The notes beneath the pieces were generated by a model, which made no database searches, was not told where the DNA came from, and saw only the letters and a program-made list of their open reading frames with translations. A program made the translations under genes and the position numbers. DNA of 32,000 nt from Megasphaera elsdenii DSM 20460 (GTDB lineage Bacteria > Bacillota > Negativicutes > Veillonellales > Megasphaeraceae): positions 1,200,001-1,232,000 of the forward strand of contig NZ_CP027570.1 of assembly GCF_003010495.1 (NCBI RefSeq), given 5' to 3'. Numbering within the stretch: the stretch's first letter is position 1; each line of letters starts with the position of its first letter. Shown here in pieces: positions 2,588-24,198 of the stretch.

Positions 2588-2651
2588 ACTTTATTAGAAA
2601 TAATTTGTTTTTTGTTTATTATAGCGTTTGAATGTTAGGAGGAAGTATTAT

Positions 2652-3884
2652 ATGAATATTGTAGTATCAGGAACTGGATATGTTGGGTTATCATTAGCAA
2701 CATTACTTTCACAACATAATCATGTTGTAGCTGTCGATATTATTCCAGAAAAGGTTGATTTAATTAATCAACGAAAATCTCCCATTCAGGATGATTATAT
2801 TGAAAAATATTTAGCTGAAAAAAATCTTGATTTAAAGGCTACGCTAGATGGCGAAAGCGCATATAAATCGGCAGATATTGTCATTATTGCGACTCCTACG
2901 AATTATGATAGCAATAAGAATTTTTTTGATACAAGTTCAGTGGAAGCCGTTATTGATCTTGTCATGAAATGCAATCCTGAAGCTATCATGATTATCAAAT
3001 CGACAATTCCAGTTGGCTATACGAAGTACATTCGAGAAAAAACGGGAAGTAAGAATATTATCTTTAGTCCTGAATTTTTACGTGAGAGCAAGGCTTTATA
3101 TGATAATCTGTATCCTAGCCGTATTATTGTAGGTACTGACTTGCAGGACGAACGTTTAGTTAAAGCTGCTCAAACTTTTGCCGCTTTGTTGCAGGAAGGT
3201 GCTATTAAAAAAGATATCCCTACCATATTTATGGGAATGACCGAGGCAGAAGCAGTAAAACTGTTTGCAAATACCTATTTGGCTATGCGTGTTTCTTATT
3301 TTAATGAGTTAGATACTTATGCAGAAGCTAAAGGTTTGAATACACAAGAGATTATAAAGGGAGTCTGTCTGGATCCTCGCATTGGCGACTATTACAATAA
3401 TCCTTCTTTTGGCTATGGCGGTTATTGCCTCCCGAAAGATACGAAGCAGTTGTTAGCGAATTATGCGGACGTCCCGGAAAATTTAATTGAAGCTATCGTA
3501 GAATCAAACCGTACCCGTAAAGATTTCATTGCAGATGAAGTTTTAAAAATTGCAGGATATTATCATGGTAATAGTAAATATGACCAGCATATGGAACACG
3601 CTATGACCATTGGGGTATATCGCCTGACCATGAAATCAAACTCAGACAATTTCCGCCAGAGCAGTATTCAAGGGGTCATGAAACGAATCAAGGGAAAAGG
3701 TGCGACGGTCATCATTTATGAACCGACGCTCGAAGACGGGACTACCTTTTTTGGCAGTGTCGTTGTCAATAATTTAGAAAAGTTCAAAAAACGAAGCCAT
3801 GCTATTATTGCTAATCGCTATGACCATTGCTTGGATGATGTAAAAGAAAAGGTTTATACGAGGGATTTGTTTGAAAGAGATTAA
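2652..3884 (+). CDS. ugd: UDP-glucose 6-dehydrogenase
   Basis: Rossmann N-terminus [18 protein letters not shown] and catalytic-Cys motif [16 protein letters not shown] at 2637-2642 favours ATG 2652 over the TTG at 2628 used by the ORF track. Confidence 0.9.
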
Positions 3885-3947: not shown

Positions 3948-4376
3948 ATGCATAAAAAAATTATTTCTGATTTTAGAAACCGTCCTTATATAAGAGTAAC
4001 TGCTGAATTAGGAATTAAAACAGGGGTGCATGCTGTTTTTGTTCATCGTAATCAAGTGGGGCAGAGTTCTGTTTTAAATACTGATAAGCCAGCAATTAAA
4101 ATTCGTTGCGTAAATGAAACATCACACAAATGCTTTTTAGATAGAATAGAAATTGATTTTGAGAACGAAGAGTCTTATACGAAAAAAGATACTGATAGAG
4201 AATTAATTGAAGGTAAGCCTGAAGTAGTATATATTACTTTAGACGAGTTAAATCTGGATACGGATTCTATGCCAAGAAAATGTATTAAAAGGATTACGGT
4301 TTTTGATACTGTGCGAGGAATATGGAATGTTGAATGTGAGAATATTGATTTGTTAAATCGGCAGATTTTTCATTAA
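3948..4376 (+). CDS. Hypothetical 142-aa protein, no recognisable domain
   Basis: Clean ORF in an AT-rich region, but no obvious SD before ATG 3948 and no motif I recognise. It sits between ugd and the repeat/promoter of the RT cassette. Confidence 0.35.
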   Translation: MHKKIISDFRNRPYIRVTAELGIKTGVHAVFVHRNQVGQSSVLNTDKPAIKIRCVNETSHKCFLDRIEIDFENEESYTKKDTDRELIEGKPEVVYITLDELNLDTDSMPRKCIKRITVFDTVRGIWNVECENIDLLNRQIFH

Positions 4377-4488
4377 TTTGGATAATCAGACTAATAGCAG
4401 CAAGACTATGAATAGAAATTATGTAGCCGTATTGCCATAGAAGCATATCGAGAAAAGAAACGAAACTGGTTATCCATTCTTGATTTTT

Positions 4489-4538
4489 CAAACTGTGGTT
4501 ACGCAATATTTATTTGTTCAAAAAGTTGTAAACTGCTG
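4489..4538 (+). repeat. 50-bp direct repeat, copy A (46/50 identical to copy B at 15096-15145)
   Basis: caaactgtggttacgcaatatttatttgttcaaaaagttgtaaactgctg versus caaagtgtggttacgcgatacttagttgttcaaaaagttgtaaactgctg, with 4 mismatches. Copy A supplies the -35 of the RT-cassette promoter. Confidence 0.9.
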
Positions 4539-4553
4539 TTGGTATGATATAAT
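4526..4553 (+). promoter_or_regulatory. Sigma-70-type promoter with extended -10 driving the RT leader
   Basis: TTGTAA (4526-4531), 16-nt spacer, then TGaTATAAT (TG 4545-4546, TATAAT 4548-4553). Confidence 0.6.
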
Positions 4554-4870
4554 AATAGTGTCTTAGACAGTTAGGTCTAAGAGCAAGAGATGTTTGTCAA
4601 GTGTTTCTTGACGAATTTATTAATAATATGAAGCTTCATATTGTTAATAAATAATGCTTCTAGTATTATAACCAATACGAAGAAGAACATGAATGTATCG
4701 AATGTGATTGAACATGATACAGTAATGTTAATCGGGAACATTTGAATCACCTCTAGGATTATCATAGCATAATTCGGGATATTTCTTTGGCAATTGCAGT
4801 TGATGCACCAGAGGACAGTATACCCATCGGTTATAAGGATATTGCCACCTTGACCGATGGGTTTTATTAT
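4554..4870 (+). ncRNA. Candidate structured non-coding RNA / 5' leader of the reverse transcriptase
   Basis: ~310 nt lie between the promoter and the RT SD. Structures seen: an 8-bp hairpin at 4561-4568/4575-4582; a 7-bp stem at 4584-4590/4604-4610; a 19-bp-arm palindrome at 4615-4652 centred on AAGCTT; a hairpin at ~4656-4684; and a 9-bp GC stem at 4822-4830/4854-4862 followed by TTTTATT. The exact ends are unknown. Confidence 0.4.
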
Positions 4871-4891
4871 ATATATAGGAGATTATGGTGT

Positions 4892-6298
4892 ATGGATATG
4901 GAATTCGACGCATTTCGAAAAGAAAGTACGGGTAAAGCATATGCTCATTTCGGAACACGATGCACATTGAAAGATGACTGGGTGTGGAAATATGTGACTG
5001 TTCCACAAAATATTGAGACGCATAAATTTTTTCCGTTCATTTCATTTGAAAAAGATTATACGAAATATAATAGTCGTGACAAGAAGCTTAAAGTTAAAAA
5101 TCGATTATTGTGTTATGCGACACATTTGGATCGCTGCATCTATCAGTATTATTCGTTTTTATTAAATAATTATTACAATAAACGAGTTGAAAATAATGGC
5201 ATAGATAAGGTTGCTGTGGCATATCGGACTGATTTACACAAGAGTAATATTCATTTTGCTAAAGAAGTATTTGATTTTATAAAAAATCAAGGTTCGTGCT
5301 ATGTAATTGTTGGTGATTTTAAATCTTTTTTTGACTCTTTGGATCATAGATATTTAAAACAGCGATTGTGTGATTTACTTGGGGTAGATAGGCTTTCAGA
5401 GGATTGGTATGCTGTCTATAAGAGTATTACAAAGTATGCAGAATGTCGAATTGAAGATATTGCTTATTTCTTGGGGAAAAAGTATTCTCCTCAAGAATAT
5501 AAGGATATAAATAAGTGCTTTAAATTAATGGGCACAAAGCAATTTCATAAATTTAAAAAGCAGATATTTCGTAATTTACGTGAAAGTGATGACGATAAGA
5601 CTGCTTTTCATTCAGCTATTGAGAAGAATAAAAAGTCATATGGAATACCACAAGGTTCTTCGATTAGTGCGGTTTTAGCTAATGTTTATATGCTTGACTT
5701 TGACAAAAACATTTATAATTATATTCAATCATATGATGGATTTTATATGAGATATTGTGATGATTTTATTATTGTATTCCCCTCATCCAATAAGGAAGAA
5801 TTTTTGTCAAAATATAAGAAGATTCGAGAATTCATTGATAATATTCCAAGGCTGAAATTGGAAAAGCAGAAAACCCAAATTTATGAGTATCGAAATCAAT
5901 CTATCATTAACCGATTTTCGTATATCTCGGATAGTCCAGAGGAACGACCGAAGCAGCGGATTGATTATTTGGGATTTTCTTTTGATGGTCAAAAAGTTAC
6001 TGTCCGTGATAAGACTTTATCGAAATACTATTATCGAATGTATCGGAAAGTAAAGTCTGCGAAGTATTGGTCACTTCGGAAAAAACGTGTGCAGACTAAA
6101 GGGTTGTATCAACTATACTCTGCTCATGCGAACTGGAGCGATTCACAAAGTCAAAATCCCAAGAAAAAGAACGGAAATTTTTTAACCTATGTACAGCGTG
6201 CAGAAAAAGAGTTTGGAAAAGATGAATTGATAGACCGAGGGACTTCTCGTCACATGGTAAAAATTAAACGTGCCATTGCTAAATGGGGCAAGACCTAA
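4892..6298 (+). CDS. Stand-alone reverse transcriptase (UG/Abi/DRT-like, subtype unassigned)
   Basis: RT motifs are present in order: NRLLCYATHLDRCIYQYY, VAVAYR, VIVGDFKSFFDSLDH, YGIPQGSSISAVLANVYMLDFD, YMRYCDDFIIVF (YCDD codons 5753-5764), and IDYLGFSFDG. AGGAG at 4877-4881 sits 10 nt before ATG 4892. The ORF-track start at 4787 would read through the leader hairpin. There is no maturase/En domain. Confidence 0.88.
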   Translation: MDMEFDAFRKESTGKAYAHFGTRCTLKDDWVWKYVTVPQNIETHKFFPFISFEKDYTKYNSRDKKLKVKNRLLCYATHLDRCIYQYYSFLLNNYYNKRVENNGIDKVAVAYRTDLHKSNIHFAKEVFDFIKNQGSCYVIVGDFKSFFDSLDHRYLKQRLCDLLGVDRLSEDWYAVYKSITKYAECRIEDIAYFLGKKYSPQEYKDINKCFKLMGTKQFHKFKKQIFRNLRESDDDKTAFHSAIEKNKKSYGIPQGSSISAVLANVYMLDFDKNIYNYIQSYDGFYMRYCDDFIIVFPSSNKEEFLSKYKKIREFIDNIPRLKLEKQKTQIYEYRNQSIINRFSYISDSPEERPKQRIDYLGFSFDGQKVTVRDKTLSKYYYRMYRKVKSAKYWSLRKKRVQTKGLYQLYSAHANWSDSQSQNPKKKNGNFLTYVQRAEKEFGKDELIDRGTSRHMVKIKRAIAKWGKT

Positions 6299-6357
6299 GA
6301 TTGATATTATGAGAGGAACATTTTATTTATAGATATTTTATAAGGAAGGTGTAATAA

Positions 6358-6920
6358 ATGATAGCGTCAATAGATGAAAATAAAGTAAACGAATATTTAG
6401 AGGATAATAAAAAGAGAATTGGGGATAGTTTCAGTTCTACACAGCCTGGAACGGTTGAAATCAAAGAAATTATTGGGGGAAAAAACAAAGACTTTCCAGA
6501 TCAAGATGGAGTTATTGATAGTTCTATGACAACGTATGGCAGATATTGCAGTGAAGATAAGATCATAAAAATTAATACCGAAGCTATAGCCCAAAAGCTA
6601 GAAGATATGAGAAATTCATTGTACCATCAATATGAAAAAACTTCCCAAAGTGACAAAAAAATTTATATAAAAGTAATAAAAAATCTTTATATAAATTTAT
6701 TGATTTAATTCTTTTACATGAATATGCACATGCTTATCAAAATCAAATTGAAGGCAAAAAGATGGAAAAAAATAACTATGAGTTAGAAGTAGAAGCAGAT
6801 GAAATAAGCAAAAGAATTTTTATGAAAGATTATAAAGGTACTCCAGATGAAATAACAGAGATGTTGTTGGATACATTCGAAGAACATCATGAGTATTTAC
6901 AGAATGTGATAAAGAAGTAG
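6358..6920 (+). pseudogene. ImmA/IrrE-like Zn-metallopeptidase (HExxH), split by a frameshift at an A7 run
   Basis: Frame 1 (6358-6708) ends shortly after the A7 run at 6655-6661. Frame 3 is open from 6654 to the TAG at 6918-6920 and encodes LLHEYAHAYQNQIEG...ELEVEADEISKRIFM (HExxH plus a downstream E..EAD). An A7-to-A8 change would fuse the two into ~187 aa. AAGGAAGG SD lies before ATG 6358. Confidence 0.55.
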
Positions 6921-7105
6921 AAATTATCATAGCAGATTGATTTACCTATAATTCAAATTGCTATCGTCCATTCACGAAGATATAATATCAGAACTTTTAC
7001 GCACCTCAATGGGTTCCAAAGATGGTTTATATGATGTCTGAACTAAATTTATTTTAAGCAGAGTTGTTACTTAGGGCAAGAGATTTTGGTGAAGAAAACA
7101 AGTGT

Positions 7106-7150
7106 AAAAATAATTCGGTTGCGGTGAATCACTGAGCCGGATTGTTTGTT
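7106..7150 (+). terminator. Hairpin repeat R1 (terminator-like), preceded by a diverged remnant of the wzx-like 3' end
   Basis: aaaaataattcggttgcggtgaatcactgagccggattgtttgtt: stem AATTCGG/CCGGATT followed by a T-rich tail. It is homologous to R2 (16583-16627) and R3 (24049-24094). Confidence 0.6.
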
Positions 7151-7401
7151 AAGAAAATAGCCGAAAATACATAAAATATGGCATAAATATGGATTTAGTG
7201 TTAGAATAAAAACAATAAAGAAGCGTTTGATTGTAATTTCTAGTGATGAGGTCTCTTGTATGTGACAAATTAAATTGTCGTAGGAGATTTACAGAAGTCA
7301 TCCATAGAATCGAAAATTTGAGATAAGATTAGCATCAGTGTACTGCAAATTTAAAGAAAGGAAATGATGATTTTGCTTCTGTAATTGTCATAAAAATTCA
7401 A

Positions 7402-8298
7402 ATGAATCGAAAACCGATACCTGAAAATGTTAAGCGTAGATTATGGGCTGAATCAATGGGACGTTGTATGAATCCAGCTTGTAGAGAAAATTTATTTATA
7501 GATGATAATGATATCATGGAAAAAGCGCATATTAATGCGTATTTTGAAACTGAAGATAATTCATATGAAAATTTAATAATATTATGCCCTAATTGTCATA
7601 AGAAATTTGATAAAACCAATCAGATCAGTATACAAACTGTTAAAGAGTGGAAAAAAATTAGACGAGAGGAGTTAGAAAGGTTTTTTTCTATTAAATTTAA
7701 ATCTTTTGATAGACTAAAAGAAAAAGTAGAACCGATATTGAGGGAAAATTATGATATATACAAGAATTACTATTTAAATGAGAATAAAACTTTGTGGAAG
7801 AAATTCGAACCTAAAATATTGGTGAATAATGAAATTCTAAAATCATTGTTCAAAAACAATTGTAATTTATTTCCAGATTATCCAAATAAAGATTACTCAA
7901 ACTTAGAAGTGATTCAAACCTTCATAACCCATGTCAATGAGTTTAAAAATACTAGAGGCGACGAAGAAAAACAAAGACAGGTGCTTTTTCCTCAAGAAAT
8001 AAATTCTATTTTTGGTATTACGCCAGTAAGTGGCTCTATTATACTTGGCGCGGAATCATTGGAAGAATTAATAAAGGTATTAAGGAGAAAAGGGCGGTTT
8101 GAATCTATCATGTTAGGAATAGATAAGCCATATATATTATTGAAAAGTGGGGGAAAAATATTTGTAGATGATACACCAAGATTACGGCAATTGTATTTTA
8201 ATAATTACTGCTTTAGAAAAACAGGGGTTAGATTACAGAACCTGAATTTTGCTTTGAGCTGTTTAAAATCTAGAAACGTGCCTTTTTTCATATACTAA
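7402..8298 (+). CDS. HNH endonuclease domain protein with an uncharacterised ~220-aa C-terminal domain
   Basis: N-terminal HNH/Zn-finger signature CMNPAC...EKAHINAY...YENLIILCPNCHKKFDK. No clear SD precedes ATG 7402. Confidence 0.7.
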   Translation: MNRKPIPENVKRRLWAESMGRCMNPACRENLFIDDNDIMEKAHINAYFETEDNSYENLIILCPNCHKKFDKTNQISIQTVKEWKKIRREELERFFSIKFKSFDRLKEKVEPILRENYDIYKNYYLNENKTLWKKFEPKILVNNEILKSLFKNNCNLFPDYPNKDYSNLEVIQTFITHVNEFKNTRGDEEKQRQVLFPQEINSIFGITPVSGSIILGAESLEELIKVLRRKGRFESIMLGIDKPYILLKSGGKIFVDDTPRLRQLYFNNYCFRKTGVRLQNLNFALSCLKSRNVPFFIY

Positions 8299-8308
8299 TC
8301 CTAACTCA

Positions 8309-8545
8309 TTGAGAGAAATTGAAGTGAATGGTACTAAGATAATTTTTGTTTATAAATATTGTTTGAGCAAAGCTTTTTTATTTAGAATGAATCCGGAACC
8401 TGGCTGTATAGTTGTAAATTTGCATAACTGGAATGGAAAAGCCTGTATATCTCAAGAAGCATTAAATTTCGCAGCGTCTCTTGACACTAGATTGTTTACA
8501 ATCGAAGACTTTTTTAAATATATCAATGAAATTAGAAAAAAATAA
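8309..8545 (+). CDS. Hypothetical 78-aa protein (TTG start), possibly a detached C-terminus of the HNH gene
   Basis: The ORF starts 10 nt after the HNH stop in another frame and overlaps the next gene by 20 nt. I recognise no motif. Confidence 0.3.
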   Translation: MREIEVNGTKIIFVYKYCLSKAFLFRMNPEPGCIVVNLHNWNGKACISQEALNFAASLDTRLFTIEDFFKYINEIRKK

Positions 8546-8837
8546 TATAATTAATCTGATTAAGCAAAATATGAACCTATTTGGGGCATTTGATGAAGTT
8601 TATGTTTTTGGCTCTATTTTAGACTCAGAGAAGTATTCAAATGATATTGATATTTTGTTATTATATTCCAATTTTTCATATGGGATTCTAGCAAGCATAA
8701 GTAGCATTATTAAATGTATAGAACACTTAACATCTTACCCAGTGGATATAACTGCTTTAAGTTTTGAAGAAGAAAAAGAGGTTGATTTTATAGGTAGATT
8801 AGATAAAAAATATATATGTATAAAGCGATGCCGATAG
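8526..8837 (+). CDS. Minimal nucleotidyltransferase (MNT/Pol-beta fold, MntA-like)
   Basis: GS...DxD signature VYVFGSILDSEKYSNDIDILLLY. ATG 8526 (MKLEKNN) is a more plausible start than the ORF-track start at 8481. There is no HEPN partner downstream; the IS remnant begins at 8921. Confidence 0.65.
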   Translation: MKLEKNNIINLIKQNMNLFGAFDEVYVFGSILDSEKYSNDIDILLLYSNFSYGILASISSIIKCIEHLTSYPVDITALSFEEEKEVDFIGRLDKKYICIKRCR

Positions 8838-8920
8838 TTTATGTGTAAATGTCAATGAGAAAGTGAGCCAGGTGATTACGAATTTTTGAGTCACAATGAT
8901 TATGGAGAATTAACTTTGAT

Positions 8921-9728
8921 GGTAGTGTCAAGATTCTTTCGCAAATTCATTTCATCCGCCAGTAAATATCGTAATCAGATATATGGATTTTCCTCGTCAT
9001 TTGGCTGCTCAATTTTCATCTTGAATAGATGCTCCATGTCCATATAGCGTTTTGAGCCCCATTCCGAGGCGGCAACATGACGAAGTCTGGCACAGACGAG
9101 CATCAAAGCACTGTTGCCGTCAGGAAAGGCACCAATGGCCCGTGTACGGCGGCGTATCTCGCGATTCACCCGTTCTGTTAGGTTATTTGTGCCTTTCATG
9201 CCTTCTGCGGCTTCGAGAATCTCACGGAACCCGTCTTTATTGGAGACCTTTGTGCCCCAAAGCAATTCGGTGATATCTTCGACACGGCGCACGGATACGC
9301 CGGCCAGGTACATCTCAATAAGGGCTTCCTCGACAGAGCATTCACGGCGTTTATAGCGCTCGATGATGGCCGTCTCAAACTGGATGCCCTTGAGCTTCGG
9401 CACGCGTAATCTGACTTCGCCGGAAGTCGTGCCAAAAATCCGCTCGTAATGACCGGAACGGTAGCCCTTACGGTCTCCCGTTCGCTCATACTTGCCAGCG
9501 CGGACGAGTTCATCCGCCTCGTGGTCGAGCAGGGCGTTCAGTGTTTCCTCTACACTGTTGCGTACAAGATCCTTTAAATTATTCTTTATAAGATCCTCAT
9601 TAAGTTGTATAATATTACCAGATATGGTCTATTGCCTCCTTACGAATTTTGTGTGGTAACTTAATTGTACTAGCGGCAATAGACTATGTCTATTTTTATG
9701 AAATTGAATTTGCGAAATATATTTTACC
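8921..9728 (-). mobile_element. Internally deleted IS256-family element (~0.8 kb) with imperfect terminal inverted repeats
   Basis: Left end ggtagtgtcaagattctttcgcaaattcatttcat (8921-8955) pairs with the reverse complement of the right end, ggtaaaatatatttcgcaaattcaatttcat (9698-9728). GC is visibly higher than in the flanks. No target-site duplication was seen. Confidence 0.75.
8975..9628 (-). pseudogene. IS256-family (Mutator-type) transposase remnant lacking the DDE core and a start codon
   Basis: A single open frame runs from 9628 down to 8975. It encodes the N-terminal part (...RSGHYERIFGTTSGEVRLRVPKLKGIQFETAIIERYKRRE...GVSVRRVEDITELLWGTKVS) joined directly to the C-terminal part (NNLTERVNREIRRRTRAIGAFPDGNSALMLVCARLRHV). 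AGGAGG at 9635-9640 is followed by ATA rather than ATG at 9625. Confidence 0.75.
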
Positions 9729-9734
9729 TTATCG

Positions 9735-10124
9735 GATGTTATCCGTGGTTCTGATCTGGTTGTTTCTGCAGTTACGAGGGCAACTGAAAATTTTGCATCA
9801 GATGACTGCTATAAACCTGGAGTGACGGTTATCCCTGTTTGCACATTAGGATTTCAGAACTGTGATTTGTTCTTTGATTAGGTATTTACAGATGAAATTG
9901 AACAGATCAGAGGATTCAAATATTTTGATAAGTTTAAGTCTGTTCATAATGTGACAGATGTTTTATTGGGAAGAGTACCAGGACGTTTAAATGATAAGCA
10001 GCGTATCCTGGTTTATAATTATGGCGTAGGCATTCATGATCTGTATTTTGCGGAACAGTTTTATCATGCAATACAAGGTACAGACATTGAATATAATTTT
10101 TGTAAAGAAAAGTATTTTATCTGA
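9735..10124 (+). pseudogene. Ornithine cyclodeaminase/mu-crystallin family gene, 3' fragment with an in-frame stop
   Basis: The translation begins DVIRGSDLVVSAVTRATENFASDDCYKPGVTVIPV... immediately after the IS right end. There is an in-frame TAG at 9879-9881, and the frame ends at TGA 10122-10124. Confidence 0.5.
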
Positions 10125-10161
10125 TCATGGATACTGCTGAAGTACACAGGGAGGAATGCAT

Positions 10162-11255
10162 ATGCGTATCTGCATAGTCGGCGGTGGTAATATCGGTACT
10201 TTATTAGTGGGTGAAGCAGCCGCGGATGGTCATGACGTAACTATGTATACATCCAGACCGGACAGCTGGCATAATCATATTGTAGTAAAAGATATTCAGG
10301 GACTCATCATCGCAGAGGGGGATATCTACACAATTACAGATGATATGTCTTTGGCTTTAAAAAATCAGGACTATATCTGTGTGACACTTCCATCTATTGC
10401 TCAGAAGTCTTTTGCAGATAAGGCTGCGGCTTATGTAAAGCCCGGCACTCGATTTGTGATGATTCCTGGTTATGGCGGCACAGAATTCCTTATGCAATCG
10501 GTGCTGAAGCAAGGAGCAGTCCTTATTGGCTTTGAACGGGTACAGGCTATTGCCCGGTTGATTCGTTATGGACAGAGTGTTTGTATGAGGGGCCGTAAAA
10601 ACGAAATTCAACTAGCATCCTATCCCCAGTGCCCTGAAGATGAAATAAAAACTATTGCAAATGATATGGAAGTTCTTTTTCATCTGCCAGTAAAAATCAT
10701 GCCTAATTACCTGAATATAACATTTACGCCGTCCAATCCGGTATTGCATACCTCCCGTTTGTATTCAATGTTTAAAGACTATCAGGAGGGCGTGTATTAT
10801 CCGAGTCATCTTCCTTTCTATGATGGCTGGACTGATTTTTCTTCTAAAGTTCTCTTTCGATTGGATGATGAAGTTCAGCTTCTCTGCTCTACGCTTAATC
10901 ATTTAGACCTTGATGGTGTCAATCTTTAAGGTTGCATTATGAAAGTCCGACAATATCAGCGATGACCTATAAATTAACCCATATAGATTCATTCCATGGA
11001 ATTATGTCTCCCATGAAAGAAACCGATAAAGGATGGATTCCGGATTTTAATAATCGTTATTTCAGCTGTGATTTTAATTATGGCTTAGAAATTCTTTATC
11101 AGTTTGCCCAAATCTGTCATCTAAAAGTACCTGCGATGGACACTGTAATGCAGTGGTATCGTAAGGTAACTCATAGTAATAAGACGATAGTAGATATTGA
11201 AGAATATGGAATTCATTCTATAGATGATATTTATATTAAGTATCTGAGTAAATAG
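10162..11255 (+). pseudogene. NAD(P) opine (octopine/nopaline-type) dehydrogenase family gene, frameshifted
   Basis: N-terminus MRICIVGGGNIGTLLVGE (Rossmann fold). GGGAGG at 10149-10154 favours ATG 10162. The frame changes at ~10914-10932 (TAA 10927-10929) and continues as ...HYESPT...GWIPDFNNRYFSCDFNYGLEIL in frame 3 to 11255. Confidence 0.55.
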
Positions 11256-11423
11256 CTTGTAAGCGATAAATAATCGATGGACTTTTTAACATCTGGAAAT
11301 ATGTGAAAATAACTCTAGTCAATTTAAATGATTTATACTGGTGTTAATGAATATGAATATTATCTTGTCACCCAATAACCTATTCATCACATGAGGCTAT
11401 ACAGATGTACTCCAATAGTTGGT

Positions 11424-11475
11424 AACGTTTCACTTATTCTAGAAACGTTGACAAGAGTGTAGAAAATGATATATT
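11424..11475 (+). promoter_or_regulatory. Promoter with an overlapping 8-bp inverted repeat (operator-like) upstream of the Panacea pair
   Basis: AACGTTTC (11424-11431) and GAAACGTT (11442-11449) form an inverted repeat. TTGACA (11448-11453), 16-nt spacer, then TGaTATATT (TATATT 11470-11475). Confidence 0.45.
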
Positions 11476-11527
11476 AATTGTAAAATGTAGACAAAATAGC
11501 TATTTTTTGAAAGGGGAGAAACAGCGT

Positions 11528-12001
11528 ATGTATACGTGGAAAGGTGTGGCGGACTGGATTTTACAAAATATTGATAATGTAACTGATAAAAAATTACAGA
11601 AGTTGATGTATTTTGCATATGCGTGGTATTTAGTATTTTTCAATGAATCCGCAAATGAAATAGAAAATCGTTTGTTTGATGAACACTTTGAAGCATGGGT
11701 TCATGGGCCTGTTTTACCTGCCTTATACCAAGATGTAAAAGAATTTCATAGTGATGATATTCCCAAAAATTATTTTGAAAAGTATAGAGAACGTTTTTCG
11801 ACAGATACATTGAATTTATTTGAACAAATAAAAAAAGTGTATGGTGCATATAATGGAAATCAGTTAGAAAGCATTGTCCATCAAGAAGATCCGTGGATTC
11901 ATGCACGTAAAGGTTGTAGCAGTTATGAAATATGTAAAAATATCATTACGGATGGGGAAATTTTTAGCTATTATATAAAAAGAATTGTTGATGAATCATG
12001 A
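11528..12001 (+). CDS. Panacea-domain (DUF4065, SocA/PanA-like) antitoxin
   Basis: KLQKLMYFAYAWYLVFFNE ... FEAWVHGPVLPALYQ matches the DUF4065 pattern. The AAGGGGAG SD favours ATG 11528. The stop overlaps the next start (ATGA at 11998-12001). Confidence 0.75.
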   Translation: MYTWKGVADWILQNIDNVTDKKLQKLMYFAYAWYLVFFNESANEIENRLFDEHFEAWVHGPVLPALYQDVKEFHSDDIPKNYFEKYRERFSTDTLNLFEQIKKVYGAYNGNQLESIVHQEDPWIHARKGCSSYEICKNIITDGEIFSYYIKRIVDES

Positions 12002-12672: not shown

Positions 12673-13893
12673 ATGTTATTAGAGTATACATGTTCTAACT
12701 ATAAATCCATAAAAGATAGGGTACTTTTTTCGTTGCTGGCAGATAAAGATATTTCTTCTCATACCCCAAATACTGTGCTTTATGACAATAAAAAAATTTT
12801 AAAATCTGCCGTAATTTATGGCGCTAATGGCTCTGGAAAAACTAATTTTTTAAATTCAATGAAATTCATGAAATTATTAGTGGCTACTAGCATTCGCAAA
12901 CAGCCTGGCGAAGGCATTCCTCAACTTTCGCATAAACTTTCTGCATCTAATGTTCCGACGGTGTTTACTGTACAGTTCATTCGTCATGGAATTCGATATT
13001 CGTATGGTTTTTCTGTTTTGCATAATATGATTGATGGGGAGTATTTGTACTACTTTCCCAAAAAGCGACTTGTAAAAATTTTTGAACGTGATGGAATGAA
13101 TATTATTCCTGGAAATAGATATAAAAATTCGTTTGATGTGAGCCAGAGCATATTAAAAGAAAATAGGTTGTTTTTATCTTGTGCTGCTAATTACACAAAT
13201 ATTAAAGAAATAGAAGAGGCGTTTTTGTTTTTTGTGGAAGATGTAGTTATTTATGATAATAATGAAAATGATTGGACTGGCTCTTCTATTCATTTGATGA
13301 GAGAAAATAAAGTAATTAAACATAAGTTTATATCATTATTACAGGAATTTGGTACAGGCATACAAAATATTAGCAGTAAGACTGAAAAAGTAAAAATTGC
13401 TACGGAACCTTTACCAGATGAAATAAAAAAGTTTTTGCCTAAAGTAGCAAATCGTATTACGATTAAAGTTGATTATGGTAAATTTCAAACTGACTTGATG
13501 TCGGAAGAATCAGATGGTGTTCAAAAATTATTTGAGTTATTGTGTCCTATTTTAGATATTTTAGCTAAAGACAAAGTCTTAATTTGTGATGAATTAGAGA
13601 ATAGTTTACATGAAATTTTAGTGGCCCATATTATAAAACTATTTCATGATAATGAATCTAAAGCGCAACTTATATTTTCAACGCATGATACAAGTCTGTT
13701 AAGTAATAATATTTTTCGCAGAGATCAGATTTGGTTTACTCAACTTACTCAAGACAGAGCAACAGATTTGTATTCTCTGATAGAAATTAAAAATATAGAT
13801 AATTTAGAGAACCTTGAAAAAGGGTATATTAGTGGTAAATACGGAGCGATTCCGTTCTTGAATATCTCATCTATTAGTAAATTGGAAAAGTAA
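12673..13893 (+). CDS. AAA_21/AAA_15-type (ABC-like) ATPase
   Basis: Walker A VIYGANGSGKTNF, Walker B/D-loop VLICDELENSLHEIL and H-loop QLIFSTHDTSLL. AGGAGTGG SD lies before ATG 12673. Confidence 0.8.
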   Translation: MLLEYTCSNYKSIKDRVLFSLLADKDISSHTPNTVLYDNKKILKSAVIYGANGSGKTNFLNSMKFMKLLVATSIRKQPGEGIPQLSHKLSASNVPTVFTVQFIRHGIRYSYGFSVLHNMIDGEYLYYFPKKRLVKIFERDGMNIIPGNRYKNSFDVSQSILKENRLFLSCAANYTNIKEIEEAFLFFVEDVVIYDNNENDWTGSSIHLMRENKVIKHKFISLLQEFGTGIQNISSKTEKVKIATEPLPDEIKKFLPKVANRITIKVDYGKFQTDLMSEESDGVQKLFELLCPILDILAKDKVLICDELENSLHEILVAHIIKLFHDNESKAQLIFSTHDTSLLSNNIFRRDQIWFTQLTQDRATDLYSLIEIKNIDNLENLEKGYISGKYGAIPFLNISSISKLEK

Positions 13894-13910
13894 AGGGGAG
13901 GGAGCGATAA

Positions 13911-14651
13911 ATGTTGTTAGAACCAAATTATAAGCTTACTCCTAGGAATAAAAATGTTAGAGAAAAATGTCCATCTAAAACTGTGATGAAATTTTCTCTA
14001 AAAGAAATAAAACAACATTTTGATGAGAGTTTAGCAATGCTTCGCAATCAAACATCTATTGCGCATGGTTTTTATGAAAATCGAAATGTAGAGGAAGCAA
14101 AATATATATGGCGCACACAAATTGTATTATTAGAAAGTGCTTATGATTTTTATCTACATGAAATTACTAAGTATGGGTTATGCCGGATATACGAAAAACA
14201 ATGGGATGAAACTCCAAAATATAAAAACATAAATATTAACATGGAAACATTGTCGGAAGCTTTAATTAGTAATGGAAGTTTGGACTGGTTTTTAAAATTC
14301 ACAAATGACCATTATAGTATCAAAACATTAACATCTTATCAGTCTTTTCGTGATCAATGTAATTTGTTGGGGATTGATTATAGAGAAATTGCAGATGAAG
14401 TGTTCTATGATAGGAATTCTCGCAAATCAACAGAAGAAAAATTAGAAAATGTCATAACTGAGCTTTTTAAACGAAGAAATCGAATTGCGCATCAATATGA
14501 TCGTGAATATGCTGATGCTGAACCTCAAAATATTGATGAAAAAACAGTAGAAGATTTTTTGCAAAGAATCTCTGAAATTGTGGATTCTATTTATCGAGCA
14601 GTACTTAGAAAAGATGGAATTTTTAATGATTTTACTTGCAATGATAAATAA
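13911..14651 (+). CDS. HEPN-domain protein (RNxIAH motif), putative RNase partner of the ATPase
   Basis: C-terminal LFKRRNRIAHQYD fits the HEPN Rx4-6H motif. The AGGGGAGGGA SD begins directly after the ATPase stop (13891-13893). Confidence 0.55.
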   Translation: MLLEPNYKLTPRNKNVREKCPSKTVMKFSLKEIKQHFDESLAMLRNQTSIAHGFYENRNVEEAKYIWRTQIVLLESAYDFYLHEITKYGLCRIYEKQWDETPKYKNININMETLSEALISNGSLDWFLKFTNDHYSIKTLTSYQSFRDQCNLLGIDYREIADEVFYDRNSRKSTEEKLENVITELFKRRNRIAHQYDREYADAEPQNIDEKTVEDFLQRISEIVDSIYRAVLRKDGIFNDFTCNDK

Positions 14652-16741: not shown

Positions 16742-17788
16742 TTGGGATATGAATGTTTATTGGCATTAGATGAAAAATATGGAACTGAATTGAAGGCTGC
16801 TACTTTGATTTTAGGTAATGGCTCCAGCATTTCTTACAGTTCAAAGTTTGCCTATTCCAGTTTATATGATGAAGCTGCTTTTACTGATGAAGAAAAACAA
16901 CTTTTTGATAAATTTGATACGAATAATTTCGAATATATTTTGCGAAAGTTATTTCAAGCTAGTGAAGTAAATAAAGTTCTAGAACTTGATCAAGGAAAAA
17001 AGGTTAATTCTGTGTATGAAAATATTCGATTGAAATTGATTGAGACAATAAGATGTATTCATCCAGTTATGAGCGATATTGATCCAGCTACTGTTCATGA
17101 TAAGGTATTTCGAATCATGATGGATTATAGATATATCATTGATTTGAATTATGACTTCTTATTGTATTGGATTTTAAGTAACAATGGTTTTTTATCTTCT
17201 TTTCCAATTGAAGAGAATGGGGCGAGAAGAAACGTATTCCAAGGGAGTCCTTTTCAATATTTTTATGATGGTTTTCGGAAAAATTGTGGAACTCATCTTT
17301 CTTTTGACTATGATTTTGTGGAAGAAGAGATAAGGAAAGAAGAGAAAACAGGAATATTTTATCCGCATGGAAATTTGTTATTCGTTCGAGATAAATTCGC
17401 TGGAGAAACATTAAAAATAAAAAGTGATGGCGATTTATTTGACGTTGTTGATAAAGATTGGGAAAAGGGATATACTCCACTCTTTATTAGTGAAGGAACA
17501 GCTAATAAAAAAATGAATAGCATACGGAGTATTTCTTACTTGAATTATGTTTATAATGAAATACTTAGCAACCTTACTGATTTTATAGTTATTTACGGCT
17601 GGTCAATGGGAGACTGCGATACTCATTTAATAAAGAAAATATTTTCCAATAAAAAAATTAAGACAGTTGCAGTTTCCATTTATAATGAAAATAGGGAGTT
17701 ACAAGCAATACAAGAAGAAAAAATAGCAATAGAAAACAAGATAAAACACTATAATAAAGAAATAGCGGTTGAATTCTGGGAATGCTGA
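16742..17788 (+). CDS. DUF4917 family (SIR2-like fold) protein
   Basis: The motif series LILGNGSSIS, NYDFLLYW, FYPHGNL, PLFISEGTANKKMNSIRSISYL and VIYGWSMGDCDTHL matches my recollection of DUF4917. The start is uncertain: TTG 16742, while the ATG at 16732 is out of frame. Confidence 0.55.
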   Translation: MGYECLLALDEKYGTELKAATLILGNGSSISYSSKFAYSSLYDEAAFTDEEKQLFDKFDTNNFEYILRKLFQASEVNKVLELDQGKKVNSVYENIRLKLIETIRCIHPVMSDIDPATVHDKVFRIMMDYRYIIDLNYDFLLYWILSNNGFLSSFPIEENGARRNVFQGSPFQYFYDGFRKNCGTHLSFDYDFVEEEIRKEEKTGIFYPHGNLLFVRDKFAGETLKIKSDGDLFDVVDKDWEKGYTPLFISEGTANKKMNSIRSISYLNYVYNEILSNLTDFIVIYGWSMGDCDTHLIKKIFSNKKIKTVAVSIYNENRELQAIQEEKIAIENKIKHYNKEIAVEFWEC

Positions 17789-18243: not shown

Positions 18244-21200
18244 ATGTGCTTGAAGCAGATATTGCAAAAAATAAAGAACATGACAAAATCTAATAAAAAT
18301 GAAATGAAGGAAGACCATAAAAATAAATATAATGATCTTGCTCCTATAAATACTTTATCACAGGATGATACCTATATTCAGGCTTTAAATTGGGCGTTTA
18401 TGAATCCGTCTATTAAAAATATTGCATTAACTGGAGCATATGGATCCGGTAAAAGTAGTATTTTACTTTCATTTTTGGAACAATATGAAAACATAAGAAA
18501 AAAGACTTTATCCATATCTTTGGCCAGCTTTATTGATAAATTACAGGAGAATCAAGATAATAATTCTACTGAAGATAAGATTATCAAGCTTGATATTAAT
18601 GAAATTGAAAAAAGTATTTTAAAGCAACTTTTTTATAAAGTAGCTCCTTCAAAAATACCACAAAGCCGTTTTCAAAGGATTCGCATTATAAAAGGAAAAA
18701 AGATATTTCTTGAGATTATAGCTGTAACGATTTTTATTTTTTTCTGTACTTATTTTTTTCGTCCTCAATACTTGGATTATTTAATCAGCTCAATTAGTTA
18801 TGGGTATCAACGACATTTTTCTGCTTTAGAAGAAGATTTACTTACCATAGTTTCCTATATTACTTTTATTGGTCTTATATTAGGGGGAATTTTTTTTATA
18901 GAAAAGATAGTGAAATGGATTTTAATATCCTTTCATTTGAAAAAAGTAACCATTCAAGGTTCAATTCAAGCAGAAACAGGAAATGATGAAGAGTCCATAT
19001 TTGATAAAAATATGGATGAAATTATTTATTTTTTTGAGAGTACTCGCTATACTACTATATTTTTTGAAGACCTTGACCGTCTGCAGAATAACAGATTGTT
19101 TGTGCACTTAAGGGCTCTTAATAATATGTTGAACCAATGTGATGTCTTAGAACGGCCGATTCGGTTTGTATATGCTGTTAAAGATGATATTTTTGAAAAA
19201 GAAGACCGTACTAAATTTTTTGAATTTATTTTGCCAGTGATTCCTATTATTAATGCTACGAATTCAGGGGAAGAGATTCGCCGATGGGTAACAGATCACA
19301 ACTATGGAAAAATTTTTGATGAGGATTTTATCGATGATATTGCTCCATATATTGATGATATGCGTGTGCTTCAAAATATTTTTAATGAATATGAGATTTA
19401 TAGAGAGCAAATTATCAATAGGACTGGATTAAATTTAGATCCAAAGAAATTGTTTGCAGTTATTGCATTTAAAAATATCTATCCATCGGATTTTTCTGAT
19501 TTACAAAATGAAAAGGGGATAGTAAAGCAAGCCTTTTACGAAAAAGAGAAAATCCTTAAGCAAAAAATTAAAGATTTAAATGACCTGATTGAAAAAGAAG
19601 AATCAACGTTTAAAAATTTGAAAGATGATGAGTTGCAAAGTGTAAATGCGATTAAAAGCGCAATGCTTGCTGATTTTGTTGATTGGAAAGGATTTGCAGA
19701 GAGTTTTAATGTCTATTCATGGAAAGATAATGAAAAATCATCTAGTTCAATTTTATTTGACTTCAAAACAATAATGAATCCAAATTTCGATTTAAATGAA
19801 TTAAAAAATATTAATGAATGCTATATACACTCTCCTGGGATAGGCAATGTTACAAAAATGTCTCTTTATGAAAAAGTCGAAAAATATTATCCAGTATGGA
19901 AACGTCATTATGAATATGATGGGAAAATTGAAGAACTTAAACTTGAAATCAATACTACACGTGACAAAATAAAAAAGTACCGCAATATGACGATGAAAGA
20001 AATTTTAGATTGCGATGAAAATGATGTTCTCTCCGAGCAAATCAAGCAAAATAAACTATTGGTATTTCTGTTGCGTAATGGTTATCTAGATGAAACCTAT
20101 GCTTCTTATATCAACTATTTCCAGGCAAACAGTACAACTTATAGCGATAGAAATTTCATCTTGTCGGTGAAAAACAGGGAACCTTTGCCTTTTGACTATA
20201 GATTGGTAAAAATTTCTCAAGTCATTAAAAAATTAAAGCTTGGGGATTTTGACTATCCGGCAGTGTATAATTTTGATTTACTTAATGAAATGTTGATGCA
20301 TGCGGAATCCTACGAAGAGAAATTAGAAGAATTCATGAAACAATTGGGGAAAGAGGATAAAAACAGTTGGAATTTTATAGATGAATTTGTTGGATATGCC
20401 CAATCACCGGCACTTTTTGTAAAATATTTGGCACACTATTGGTCAAATATGTGGAATTTTATTCTTGACTCTTCCTTATTAGAACAGCGTAAGGTATTTT
20501 ATTTGAAGTTGTTAATTGATGATGCAAAACTTGATGACCTTTGTCTCATGAATAAATCTAATTCATTAAGTACGTATTTTAGAGAAACTCATGATATTTT
20601 ACAGAAGCTTCATGATGTTGATGAAGAAAAAATGATTGCTCTTATGGGACGGTTGCAAATTAAATTTAGCCAAGCTGAATTAACTGGAGTCAGTGAAAAG
20701 TTGGTACAATATATCATACAACAACGAATGTATATTTTGAATCCGTATATGCTAAATCAGATTATTTCCTGGAATTTTCCGCAAAAGGAAAATGCAGCAT
20801 TGAGGGAAAATTATACGGTGATTTTGGAAGCAGATATAAAGCCCGTACTGGAATACATAGATGACAATATTGAAGAATACGTAAAAAATGTTACTTTATC
20901 AAAAGAAAATACTCAGGAAAGTAATAGAGCGGTAGTGGGATTATTAACCAAAATTATCGACGATAAAGAACTTTGCTGTGATGTAATTAGGCACCAGGGG
21001 AAAATAGAGTTCAACGACTTGGCAGATTGTAATGGTGAACAGACGGAAAAATCAAAAGACTCTGTAAAGGCAATTTGGGATGTTATCTTGGAAGAAAACA
21101 AAGTTGTGGCTTCCTGGAGTAATGTTCGGGTCTACTGGAAGCACTTTGGAGTCACTAAAAATCTAGTTTCTTTTGTCGATGTAAACTATGCAAAGTTAGA

Positions 21201-21954
21201 CAAATTGGATAATGAAGATGATAACTCAAACTTCGTTGTTCAATTCATTAAATCAGATTTGGTTGATGTTTCTTTGCTGAAAAAAATAAAATTTGCCTTA
21301 GTCATTACTGATATGGGAGATATTATTAATAAGATTCCAGAAGATAAAGTTGAAGTTTTGGTAGAAAAAAATGTTATCTCGTTTACGTTAGATAATTTAC
21401 AATTACTGCATGATTATTTGGATGATGAAAGAATTATGGCTAAATTTATTGTTTCAAATCAAGATTTGTTCTTTGCGAAAATTTCTGAAGACAGTGAAGC
21501 AGTGGATTATATTGTAAAAGATCAGAATTTAATTTTACACTTGATTTATCAAGATGAGATCAGTACTGAAAATAAAAATAAATTAATTGCATCAATAGAT
21601 GCAGACACTATTGATATAGAAATTGCAAAAAAGATAATTGAGATGAAGTTAAAAATTAATAGAGAGCAATTTTATGCAATTTGGAATCAAGTTGATCAAA
21701 ATTTGAAAGTGAAGTTATTCTATCAGTATATGGAATTGTTAACAGTTGATGATTTTCAAGATATTTTTCAACAGCTGAAAAATCAGAGTTCTGCTTTTGA
21801 AAAGTTAGCTCAAAGGGAGGCAAGAAAGCAAGTAAAACTTTCCAATACACCTGATAATATCAAACTGGCAAAGTGTTTAAGAAACAAGGGATATATTACT
21901 AGTTTTAACGAAATTGATACGAAAATTGAAATGCGAATCAAGAAATCACAGTAA
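18244..21954 (+). CDS. YobI/KAP-family P-loop NTPase, 1236 aa, with two TM helices inserted in the NTPase domain
   Basis: Walker A GAYGSGKS (18433-18456). Two hydrophobic helices follow (IFLEIIAVTIFIFFCTYFF and IVSYITFIGLILGGIFFI), then Walker B TTIFFEDLDR. The remaining ~900 aa are helical or coiled-coil. AGGAG at 18232-18236 precedes ATG 18244. Confidence 0.7.
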   Translation: MCLKQILQKIKNMTKSNKNEMKEDHKNKYNDLAPINTLSQDDTYIQALNWAFMNPSIKNIALTGAYGSGKSSILLSFLEQYENIRKKTLSISLASFIDKLQENQDNNSTEDKIIKLDINEIEKSILKQLFYKVAPSKIPQSRFQRIRIIKGKKIFLEIIAVTIFIFFCTYFFRPQYLDYLISSISYGYQRHFSALEEDLLTIVSYITFIGLILGGIFFIEKIVKWILISFHLKKVTIQGSIQAETGNDEESIFDKNMDEIIYFFESTRYTTIFFEDLDRLQNNRLFVHLRALNNMLNQCDVLERPIRFVYAVKDDIFEKEDRTKFFEFILPVIPIINATNSGEEIRRWVTDHNYGKIFDEDFIDDIAPYIDDMRVLQNIFNEYEIYREQIINRTGLNLDPKKLFAVIAFKNIYPSDFSDLQNEKGIVKQAFYEKEKILKQKIKDLNDLIEKEESTFKNLKDDELQSVNAIKSAMLADFVDWKGFAESFNVYSWKDNEKSSSSILFDFKTIMNPNFDLNELKNINECYIHSPGIGNVTKMSLYEKVEKYYPVWKRHYEYDGKIEELKLEINTTRDKIKKYRNMTMKEILDCDENDVLSEQIKQNKLLVFLLRNGYLDETYASYINYFQANSTTYSDRNFILSVKNREPLPFDYRLVKISQVIKKLKLGDFDYPAVYNFDLLNEMLMHAESYEEKLEEFMKQLGKEDKNSWNFIDEFVGYAQSPALFVKYLAHYWSNMWNFILDSSLLEQRKVFYLKLLIDDAKLDDLCLMNKSNSLSTYFRETHDILQKLHDVDEEKMIALMGRLQIKFSQAELTGVSEKLVQYIIQQRMYILNPYMLNQIISWNFPQKENAALRENYTVILEADIKPVLEYIDDNIEEYVKNVTLSKENTQESNRAVVGLLTKIIDDKELCCDVIRHQGKIEFNDLADCNGEQTEKSKDSVKAIWDVILEENKVVASWSNVRVYWKHFGVTKNLVSFVDVNYAKLDKLDNEDDNSNFVVQFIKSDLVDVSLLKKIKFALVITDMGDIINKIPEDKVEVLVEKNVISFTLDNLQLLHDYLDDERIMAKFIVSNQDLFFAKISEDSEAVDYIVKDQNLILHLIYQDEISTENKNKLIASIDADTIDIEIAKKIIEMKLKINREQFYAIWNQVDQNLKVKLFYQYMELLTVDDFQDIFQQLKNQSSAFEKLAQREARKQVKLSNTPDNIKLAKCLRNKGYITSFNEIDTKIEMRIKKSQ

Positions 21955-24151: not shown

Positions 24152-24198
24152 GACAGGAGAAATAAGAGATGCTGTAAAGTGTAAGGAGCTGGAGTGTG

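Follow-up and report, generated by a model that had tools for sequence, protein, structure and literature searches.

In a stretch of 32,000 nucleotides (nt) from Megasphaera elsdenii DSM 20460 (contig NZ_CP027570.1, positions 1,200,001 to 1,232,000 of the forward strand), analysed as a whole and called the window below, a stand-alone reverse transcriptase (RT) gene lies behind a long, densely structured leader. We find that this locus is very probably a DRT2 (UG2) anti-phage system, in which a non-coding RNA (ncRNA) of ~310 nt and the RT are produced from the single promoter at 4526-4553. Its place in the DRT2 family, its conserved RNA with the helices and the geometry of the template are seen both in the window and across relatives. 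By homology with characterized DRT2 systems, we infer that the RT would synthesize complementary DNA (cDNA) on this RNA, primed by the RNA's own 3' end, that phage infection would be the trigger, and that a toxic protein, Neo, would bring about defence.

The locus is made up of the following features, positions being those of the window and minus-strand features being written from the higher to the lower number; the neo features are predicted elements of the gene that the cDNA would carry.

4526-4553, plus strand: promoter of the ncRNA-RT transcript, with -35 TTGTAA (4526-4531), a 16-nt spacer and extended -10 TGATATAAT (4545-4553)
4559-4868, plus strand: DRT2 ncRNA of ~310 nt, from conservation beside homologous RTs, an Rfam RT-6 match and the fold; both ends predicted
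4561-4582, plus strand: 5' handle hairpin SL1, arms 4561-4568/4575-4582 (inverted-repeat search, covariation)
4589-4777, plus strand: predicted template of 189 nt or 63 codons, about nt 30-218 of the ncRNA (spacing of the GAU repeat, 17-bp promoter spacer)
4589-4591, plus strand: first copy of the GAU direct repeat, the putative jump motif (repeat at offset 189)
4778-4780, plus strand: second copy of the GAU jump motif, directly 3' of the template and the analogue of ACA-2 (repeat at offset 189, sequence reading)
4600..4595, minus strand: neo promoter -35 TTGACA, 6 nt from the cDNA 3' end; UGUCAA in the RNA is invariant in 76/76 loci
4769..4761, minus strand: extended -10 of the neo promoter, TGCTATGAT, with 11 nt between it and the cDNA 5' end; nearly all relatives have a TGnTATAAT-like sequence here
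4754..4748, minus strand: neo Shine-Dalgarno (SD) sequence AGAGGTG; GAGG is followed after 8 nt by an ATG of the open circular frame
4741..4739, minus strand: neo start codon ATG, in the open circular frame
4615-4633/4634-4652, plus strand: hairpin within the template, 19-nt arms (inverted-repeat search)
4756-4775, plus strand: hairpin over the complement of the -10 (sequence reading, present in the minimum free energy (MFE) fold)
4788-4794/4841-4847, plus strand: pseudoknot helix Pa, UGGCAAU/AUUGCCA (inverted-repeat search, covariation)
4822-4831/4853-4862, plus strand: pseudoknot helix Pb, followed by UUUUAUU (inverted-repeat search, covariation)
4892-6298, plus strand: DRT2 RT gene of 468 amino acids (aa), with SD AGGAG at 4877-4881, ATG at 4892 and YCDD at 5753-5764

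Reverse transcriptase and leader RNA

The RT is a single-domain protein, RVT_1 being its only Pfam domain, with the YCDD motif at residues 288-291; its open reading frame (ORF) is intact and keeps all family-invariant residues. Two PADLOC Drt2 models match it at the top of the list (PDLC03757, E = 7.6e-142; PDLC02173, E = 1.6e-84), and all other RT profiles (UG17, Drt3a, Drt9, retron-type and CRISPR-associated) stay at E = 5e-23 or weaker, over the core motifs only. Residues 15-440 align to residues 12-402 of the solved Drt2 chains (9c0i, 9c0j, 9jl3 and others) with E = 6e-55. Several of the 1,971 homologues of the RT are named "antiviral reverse transcriptase Drt2" by NCBI.

Profiles, structures and names thereby resolve as DRT2 the subtype that an earlier reading of the window, the original prediction, had left unassigned; the RT does not group with group II intron or retron profiles. 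That prediction had also singled out the N-terminal region and an insertion between motifs A and B as odd. Both align along the solved Drt2 RTs, and ~40 residues of the insertion are an extra of the clade to which the window belongs. The SD sequence, the start codon and the YCDD motif were located correctly, with an ORF of 468 aa ending at 6298.

The nearest relatives of the RT, 96% identical, lie on human-gut metagenome contigs and have the same ncRNA. The best match in a reference genome is 51% identical, and matches come mostly from Clostridia, with some from Negativicutes and Paenibacillus. No effector gene conserved with the RT was found, the genes downstream of it varying between relatives. 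As a scan of viral contigs with the RT as query returned no match, we see no sign of a phage-borne locus.

The promoter of the ncRNA-RT transcript is of the sigma-70 type and stands as originally described: a promoter scan scores it 10/12 with the TG of the extended -10, the transcription start being predicted. A -10 of the form TATAAT or TATACT is found at the equivalent place in relatives (upstream alignment, 15 loci). Downstream of it, the leader (310 nt) folds with an MFE of -99 kcal/mol, compared with -63 +/- 5 for dinucleotide shuffles (z = -7.04).

Individual elements of the leader fared differently on closer inspection. The 8-bp hairpin at 4561-4582 and the palindrome at 4615-4652 are both present as proposed, with arms at 4561-4568/4575-4582 and 4615-4633/4634-4652. 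A 7-bp stem at 4584-4590/4604-4610 is recognizable by eye if one G-U pair is allowed; the repeat search did not return it, and it competes with a pairing of 4593-4601 with 4607-4615. Direct repeats of GAACATGA do exist at 4685 and 4710; taken alone they are unremarkable, since the whole window holds four copies against 1.4 expected. The GC stem that had been taken for a terminator or attenuator is real and has 10 bp (4822-4831/4853-4862); it is not simply either of these but the covarying helix Pb of the 3' scaffold, and it may also lie near the 3' end of the RNA.

In an alignment of the 420 nt 5' of the RT from 15 loci (RT identity 96-51%), the promoter -10 is kept, the 5' hairpin carries compensating changes, UUGUCAA is invariant and the 3' half is highly conserved, while the interior is variable. 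Iterated nhmmer profiles of the 5' and 3' blocks were then run on 125 fetched loci: the 3' block lies upstream of the RT in 101 of them, and 76 possess both blocks. The distance from the end of the ncRNA to the RT start codon is 12-37 nt in the loci checked, with the exception of locus L075, where it is 0.

The Rfam family RT-6 (RF03027) matches 4559-4634 end to end with 44.1 bits (E = 1.5e-7), just short of its gathering threshold of 46.7 bits. Above that threshold, with 51-68 bits, it is found at the 5' end of the ncRNA in 10 of 18 relatives' loci. Because the matches in the window and in these relatives fall at the equivalent site, RT-6 corresponds to the 5' portion of the Firmicute DRT2 ncRNA; the model covers only the first ~75 nt, that is the 5' hairpin and the UUGUCAA segment.

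Covariation of the helices was scored on the conserved parts of an alignment of 39 non-redundant sequences (alignment A3). SL1 (4561-4568/4575-4582) is paired in 95.8% of cells and all 8 of its pairs have changed on both sides. The corresponding figures are 98.5% and 6 of 7 pairs for Pa (4788-4794/4841-4847), 99.7% and 10 of 10 pairs for Pb (4822-4831/4853-4862), and 98.3% and 3 of 3 pairs for an inner 3-bp helix. For the structure as a whole, 91.4% of cells are paired compared with 78.5% in shuffles, none of the 500 shuffles equalling it, and slid partners reach at most 48%. Pa interleaves with Pb, and the two helices thus make up a pseudoknot, a feature also of the Klebsiella DRT2. The leader is thus conserved beside homologous RTs, with covariation in SL1, Pa, Pb and the inner helix, and the general claim of the original prediction, an RT with an upstream template ncRNA of the class-2 UG/DRT kind under one promoter, is supported by profiles, structures and conservation alike.

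The remaining helices behave less uniformly. Arms of the template hairpin (4615-4652) co-vary between clades with ATGAAGCTTCAT retained. The hairpin at 4756-4775 occurs in two registers across the family, each ~60-66% paired over the whole set, so that it is not cleanly scorable. The left strand of Pa can instead pair with the invariant GUUGUC of the -35 segment (4593-4598/4788-4793; columns 37-42/97-102 of A3) in 97% of cells. Every change in this helix is wobble-compatible and all changes are one-sided, which is compatible with a second conformation but is no proof of one.

A basal stem closing the template, UUGUCAA 4594-4600 with UUGGCAA 4787-4793, was considered and rejected: covariation pairs its 3' strand with AUUGCCA 4841-4847, in Pa. 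We also note two additional promoter-like matches in this region. One, in sense, is TTGCCA-17-TATTAT at 4842-4870 on the plus strand, just 5' of the RT SD sequence and overlapping the right strand of Pa; the other, in antisense, is TTGCCA-16-TATGCT at 4793-4766 on the minus strand, upstream of the neo -10, and is weak (9/12). Both make use of the UGGCAA/UUGCCA helix sequence, which is clade-specific and not kept family-wide.

Template, split promoter and circular reading frame

In the window, GAU occurs at 4589-4591 and 4778-4780, exactly 189 nt apart, each time as part of GAUnUUU (4589-4595 and 4778-4784). If 189-nt units were joined head to tail, the minus-sense junction would be predicted to read ...TTGACAAACATC|CCGAATTATGC..., and the two halves of a promoter would meet there: ...TTGACA AACATC|CCGAATTATGC TATGAT..., with a 17-bp spacer and TG at -14/-15. 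The joined promoter TTGACA-17-TGCTATGAT is followed by GAGG, 8 nt and an in-frame ATG. Importantly for the choice of boundaries, a -10 at 4769..4761 implies a unit of 189 nt, which is exactly the spacing of the GAU repeat.

The antisense strand of the leader had received a passing mention in the original prediction for a stop-free frame at 4577-4765. This frame is present and is actually longer, remaining free of stops between 4882 and 4580 (101 codons). As the predicted neo reading frame, it constitutes the central functional feature of the locus. Around the circle of the 189-nt unit, the three antisense frames contain 0, 16 and 8 stops, and any open circular frame is retained in only 2.1% of shuffles of the unit. 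The genomic stop codon, TAG at 4579..4577, is placed just outside the unit. One repeat encodes MFPINITVSCSITFDTFMFFFVLVIILEALFINNMKLHIINKFVKKHLTNIPNYAMIILEVIQ, a hydrophobic sequence with a grand average of hydropathy (GRAVY) of +1.08.

Two other candidates for the -10 were set aside. The antisense TATAAT at 4670..4665 would give a unit of 93 nt, also divisible by 3, but has no counterpart in relatives. GATAAT at 4763..4758 would give a unit of 186 nt, but the conserved TGnTATAAT of relatives aligns to 4769..4761.

Across relatives, the length of the unit was derived from the invariant TTGACA and the best TGnTATAAT near the start of the 3' block, assuming a 17-bp spacer and ignoring the reading frame. 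The implied length is divisible by 3 in 76/76 loci, although there are 18 different lengths from 120 to 222 nt; at 189 nt, the repeat of the window is the second-longest in the set. Among the 52 distinct units, 51 have no stop around the circle in one and the same antisense frame, compared with 10 in which any sense frame is open. A direct repeat is found exactly at the offset implied by the promoter, with the consensus AUUG (5' end gAUUGUUGUCAA, 3' end AUUGcaa). Insertions and deletions that separate the clades within the template preserve the frame, the L120 group for example being 6 nt shorter. An SD sequence is nearly universal in the family units.

The units of the family tend to encode hydrophobic sequences as well (median GRAVY 0.84), and the promoter hexamers serve as coding sequence for the conserved ends of Neo, ..LTTI and.NYVII. 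Within this family the window belongs to a clade with L081, L082 and L119-L125 (96-67% RT identity), characterized by GAU in place of AUU and by a compact scaffold lacking the variable hairpin.

Comparison with characterized systems and rival readings

In characterized DRT2 systems, an ncRNA of ~280 nt is placed upstream of the RT, combines a handle hairpin at its 5' end with a 3' scaffold that contains a pseudoknot, and primes synthesis with its own 3' end (Tang et al. 2024, PMC11100668; Wilkinson et al. 2024, PMC12039810). The template of the Klebsiella ncRNA, nt 29-148, is flanked by the motifs ACA-1 and ACA-2; the RT copies it repeatedly by programmed template jumping into a concatemeric cDNA, which becomes double-stranded upon phage infection (PMC11100668; PMC12039810). 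At the junction between repeats, a -35 and a -10, both antisense, come to lie 17 bp apart; the resulting neo transcript has a ribosome-binding site, a start codon and a stop-free frame, the repeat length being divisible by 3, and Neo arrests growth (PMC11100668; PMC12039810). A hydrophobic bias of Neo was reported by Wilkinson et al. (2024, PMC12039810). Upstream of UG2 RTs, ncRNAs specific to particular groups had been described by Mestre et al. (2022, PMC9226505).

The window shares a set of features with the Klebsiella system, KpnDRT2 (PDB 9c0i and others). Both have a single-domain YCDD RT, alignable over its full length, and an upstream ncRNA on the same strand and under a common promoter. 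In both, a 5' hairpin of ~28-30 nt precedes the template, which starts at about nt 30 in the window and at nt 29 in Klebsiella, and the template is flanked by a trinucleotide direct repeat. The pseudoknotted 3' scaffold, which in Klebsiella comprises a tower, a buttress and a pseudoknot, is likened here at the level of helices read from sequence. Also in common are the SD sequence and start codon after the -10, the stop-free frame, the length divisible by 3 and the hydrophobic Neo unit. The junction divides the spacer in the window into 6 nt on the -35 side and 11 nt on the -10 side, a geometry that fits the figures of Wilkinson et al. (120 = 6+91+6+17; PMC12039810) and equals the geometry of the Kpn-like row in the table of Tang et al., TAGATATGAAT-TATACT...TTGACA-ACCTGT (PMC11100668). 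The window differs in the length of the RT (468 aa, with ~40 extra between motifs A and B, compared with 425 aa in KpnDRT2), in the length of the repeat (189 nt or 63 codons, compared with 120 nt) and in the host, a Gram-positive gut bacterium unlike Klebsiella; for the clade of the window, the mechanism is assigned by strong homology at the level of sequence.

We propose the following course of events for the M. elsdenii locus. The RT would bind the ncRNA through its 5' hairpin and pseudoknotted 3' scaffold and copy the 189 nt of the template, beginning at 4777 and ending at 4589. The cDNA terminus, complementary to GAU 4589-4591, would re-pair with GAU 4778-4780 and start a new round, resulting in rolling-circle reverse transcription. 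Upon phage infection the concatemer would turn double-stranded, and its repeat junctions would join TTGACA and TGCTATGAT over 17 bp into a promoter that is absent from the genome. The transcript, with its SD sequence, ATG and stop-free frame of 63 codons, would be translated to a repetitive, hydrophobic Neo, and the infected cell would be arrested.

Several points weigh against this reading of the locus. Here the ends of the RNA, as well as cDNA, junction and Neo protein, are predictions, and the exact nucleotide of the junction is ambiguous within the repeated bases. The neo -10 is TATGAT and not TATAAT. The 189-nt repeat exceeds the 111-129 nt reported for close relatives of the Klebsiella system, the putative jump motif reads GAU, and AUUG in the wider family, where ACA was shown to matter in Klebsiella, and the 3' scaffold measures ~90 nt in the clade of the window compared with ~130 nt. 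Among the relatives, a canonical in-frame start lies 4-11 nt after the SD sequence in only 36 of 61 distinct units, and the 120-nt unit of L023 has a stop at the junction codon under the boundaries chosen. L023 (~2692-2960) is the sole member with a stop in the shared frame; either its junction differs or the copy is defective.

The layout of an RT and an ncRNA without an effector gene is also that of DRT9, DRT3 and DRT10, which like the window combine these two components and defend via DNA synthesis. If the locus were such a class-2 UG/DRT system, its ncRNA would guide the protein-primed synthesis of a homopolymer or short tandem repeat, with no coding concatemer. Profiles of Drt9, Drt3a and UG17 do match the RT at ~E = 1e-21 to 5e-23, but they cover the core RT motifs only and fall ~120 orders of magnitude behind Drt2. 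Nor would the DRT9, DRT3 and DRT10 mechanisms, whose products are non-coding, have any role for a split promoter, unit lengths divisible by 3 or a frame open around the circle, and we consider this explanation highly improbable. Retrons, too, resemble DRT2, in that an RT copies part of an adjacent ncRNA and defends by abortive infection, and the standard RT motifs, the adjoining structured RNA and weak matches to retron-type RT profiles (E = 1e-11 to 1e-13) would suit the RT of a retron or group II intron whose RNA partner is non-canonical. However, the best profile and structure matches of the RT are Drt2, no Rfam group II intron or retron RNA was found in 4000-7400 at E <= 1, and Pfam, returning RVT_1 only, gave no maturase or endonuclease domain in the RT. 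Retrons produce a single-copy branched msDNA (multicopy single-stranded DNA) and require an effector protein, whereas the window has neither the msr/msd architecture nor a conserved effector; that it holds a retron or an intron RT appears next to impossible.

It could also be argued that the antisense ORF is an ordinary gene for a hydrophobic peptide of 54 aa (ATG 4741 to the stop at 4577), such as a type I toxin, and that the sense RNA is its antitoxin or simply the leader of the RT. The hydrophobicity of the peptide, the weak antisense promoter-like site at 4793..4766 (9/12) and the 52-aa minus-strand ORF that gene callers annotate upstream of the RT in relatives would all be in keeping with it. 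Yet an ordinary gene needs no stop-free stretch in the same frame upstream of its own start, SD sequence and -10, nor a distance divisible by 3 from its -10 to a downstream TTGACA, a relation kept in 76/76 loci. The genomic antisense -35, TTGCCA, is not conserved either, the family having GCTATCC at this place, which leaves a conventional gene very unlikely. Finally, the DRT2 locus may have decayed, its features being inherited while the system no longer works in this genome; the frameshift in a neighbouring gene for an HExxH protein and several small fragmentary ORFs at 8300-12000 point in this direction. Against such decay, the RT ORF is intact with YCDD and all family-invariant residues, the circular frame, promoter halves, SD sequence and ATG are all intact as well, and copies 96% identical with the same ncRNA exist in other gut metagenomes, so that an inactive locus has a very small chance of being correct. 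A DRT2 system remains the identity that we assign to the locus.

Members of the same Firmicute family were already part of the published set. The entries of Table S1 in Tang et al. (PMC11100668) considered here include Flavonifractor sp. An100 (L010 in our set) and Clostridiales bacterium KLE1615, each given with ncRNA, cDNA and predicted translation. These share with the window the 5' hairpin, AUUGUUGUCAA, the -10 block and the GGAUAGC/GCUAUCC pseudoknot, although the RT of the window is only ~43% identical to theirs. Taken literally, the cDNA boundary in the L010 entry starts at the -10 and leaves no 17-bp spacer, unlike the boundaries used here for the window and the family, which provide this spacer and agree with the direct repeat. 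Because that table already holds members of the Firmicute family, the locus adds a member to a known kind and not a new family. The family-level conclusion is thus not new, and the window is a divergent member with a long repeat, GAU in place of ACA or AUU, and a compact scaffold.

Whether the clade of the window goes further, forming a structurally distinct DRT2 variant by virtue of its 63-codon Neo unit, GAU motif and ~90-nt scaffold together with the family-wide alternative GUUGUC-Pa helix, is a tentative suggestion that we consider rather doubtful. If it were true, two mutually exclusive conformations, one closing the template and the other forming the pseudoknot, could gate access to the template or the jump.

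Defence island and meaning for the family

The DRT2 locus is placed between cell-envelope genes and a run of defence genes (7402-27510), heading the island that these form. Its surroundings in the window are as follows.

1070-2587: MurJ, cell envelope, flanking the DRT2 locus
2628-3884: UDP-glucose dehydrogenase, cell envelope, flanking the DRT2 locus
7402-8298: HNH endonuclease, defence island
8481-8837: nucleotidyltransferase, defence island
12673-14651: AbiL (AbiLi and RiboL-PSP HEPN protein), defence island
16742-17788: PDC-S21/DUF4917 protein, defence island
18244-21954: Tmn/YobI-like NTPase, defence island
22215-23729: Schlafen AlbA_2/HATPase_c_4 protein, defence island
24196-27510: IetA-IetS (IetAS), defence island

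An anti-phage role fits this position in a defence island. The ORFs at 6358-6708 (116 aa) and 6762-6920 (52 aa) are one gene, frameshifted near the A/T-rich segment ~6655-6700, which encodes an HExxH protein (HEYAH) of ~180 aa. We rejected this frameshifted gene as a partner of the system. It is confined to the closest relatives, with intact copies in L119, L081 and L095, a split one in L082 and none beside the 67-69% relatives. At 8300-12000, many short overlapping ORFs accompany an apparently truncated NAD-dependent dehydrogenase (10156-10929, Octopine_DH/ApbA-like), and the segment looks like gene remnants between defence modules.

The relatives show other arrangements. In those with 67-69% RT identity (L120-L125), an AAA_15/AAA_21 ATPase and a partner of ~250 aa are located just downstream of the RT, the partner having a weak DUF4276 match in L124/L125 and no Pfam match in L120-L122; a HigB/helix-turn-helix pair is found upstream in L120-L122. 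With genes on either side thus differing by relative, DRT2 resides in different defence neighbourhoods in different genomes. tRNA genes occur within a few hundred bases of DRT2 in L003 (2223-2372), L010 (2332-2405), L065 (2300-2382) and L120 (6590-6673), which suggests that such islands sit at tRNA-linked integration hot spots.

DRT2 is among the strangest of known defence mechanisms, as its gene does not exist until reverse transcription has run in circles over an RNA. The M. elsdenii locus adds no new principle to it, but the full neo signature can be read from the sequence of a distant Gram-positive member, and this signature, consisting of a direct repeat, a promoter split 6+11 nt and an open circular frame, holds in the related Firmicute loci examined, with repeats of 120-222 nt. 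With standard annotation the RT would receive its name, but the ncRNA would go unnoticed and the antisense frame might be taken for a small protein-coding gene. As to the Rfam RT-6 motif, it now has an interpretation as the 5' portion of the DRT2 ncRNA in the Firmicute family. For mechanistic comparisons or for engineering, the Firmicute family offers loci that vary naturally in the length of the repeat, the jump motif and the size of the scaffold.

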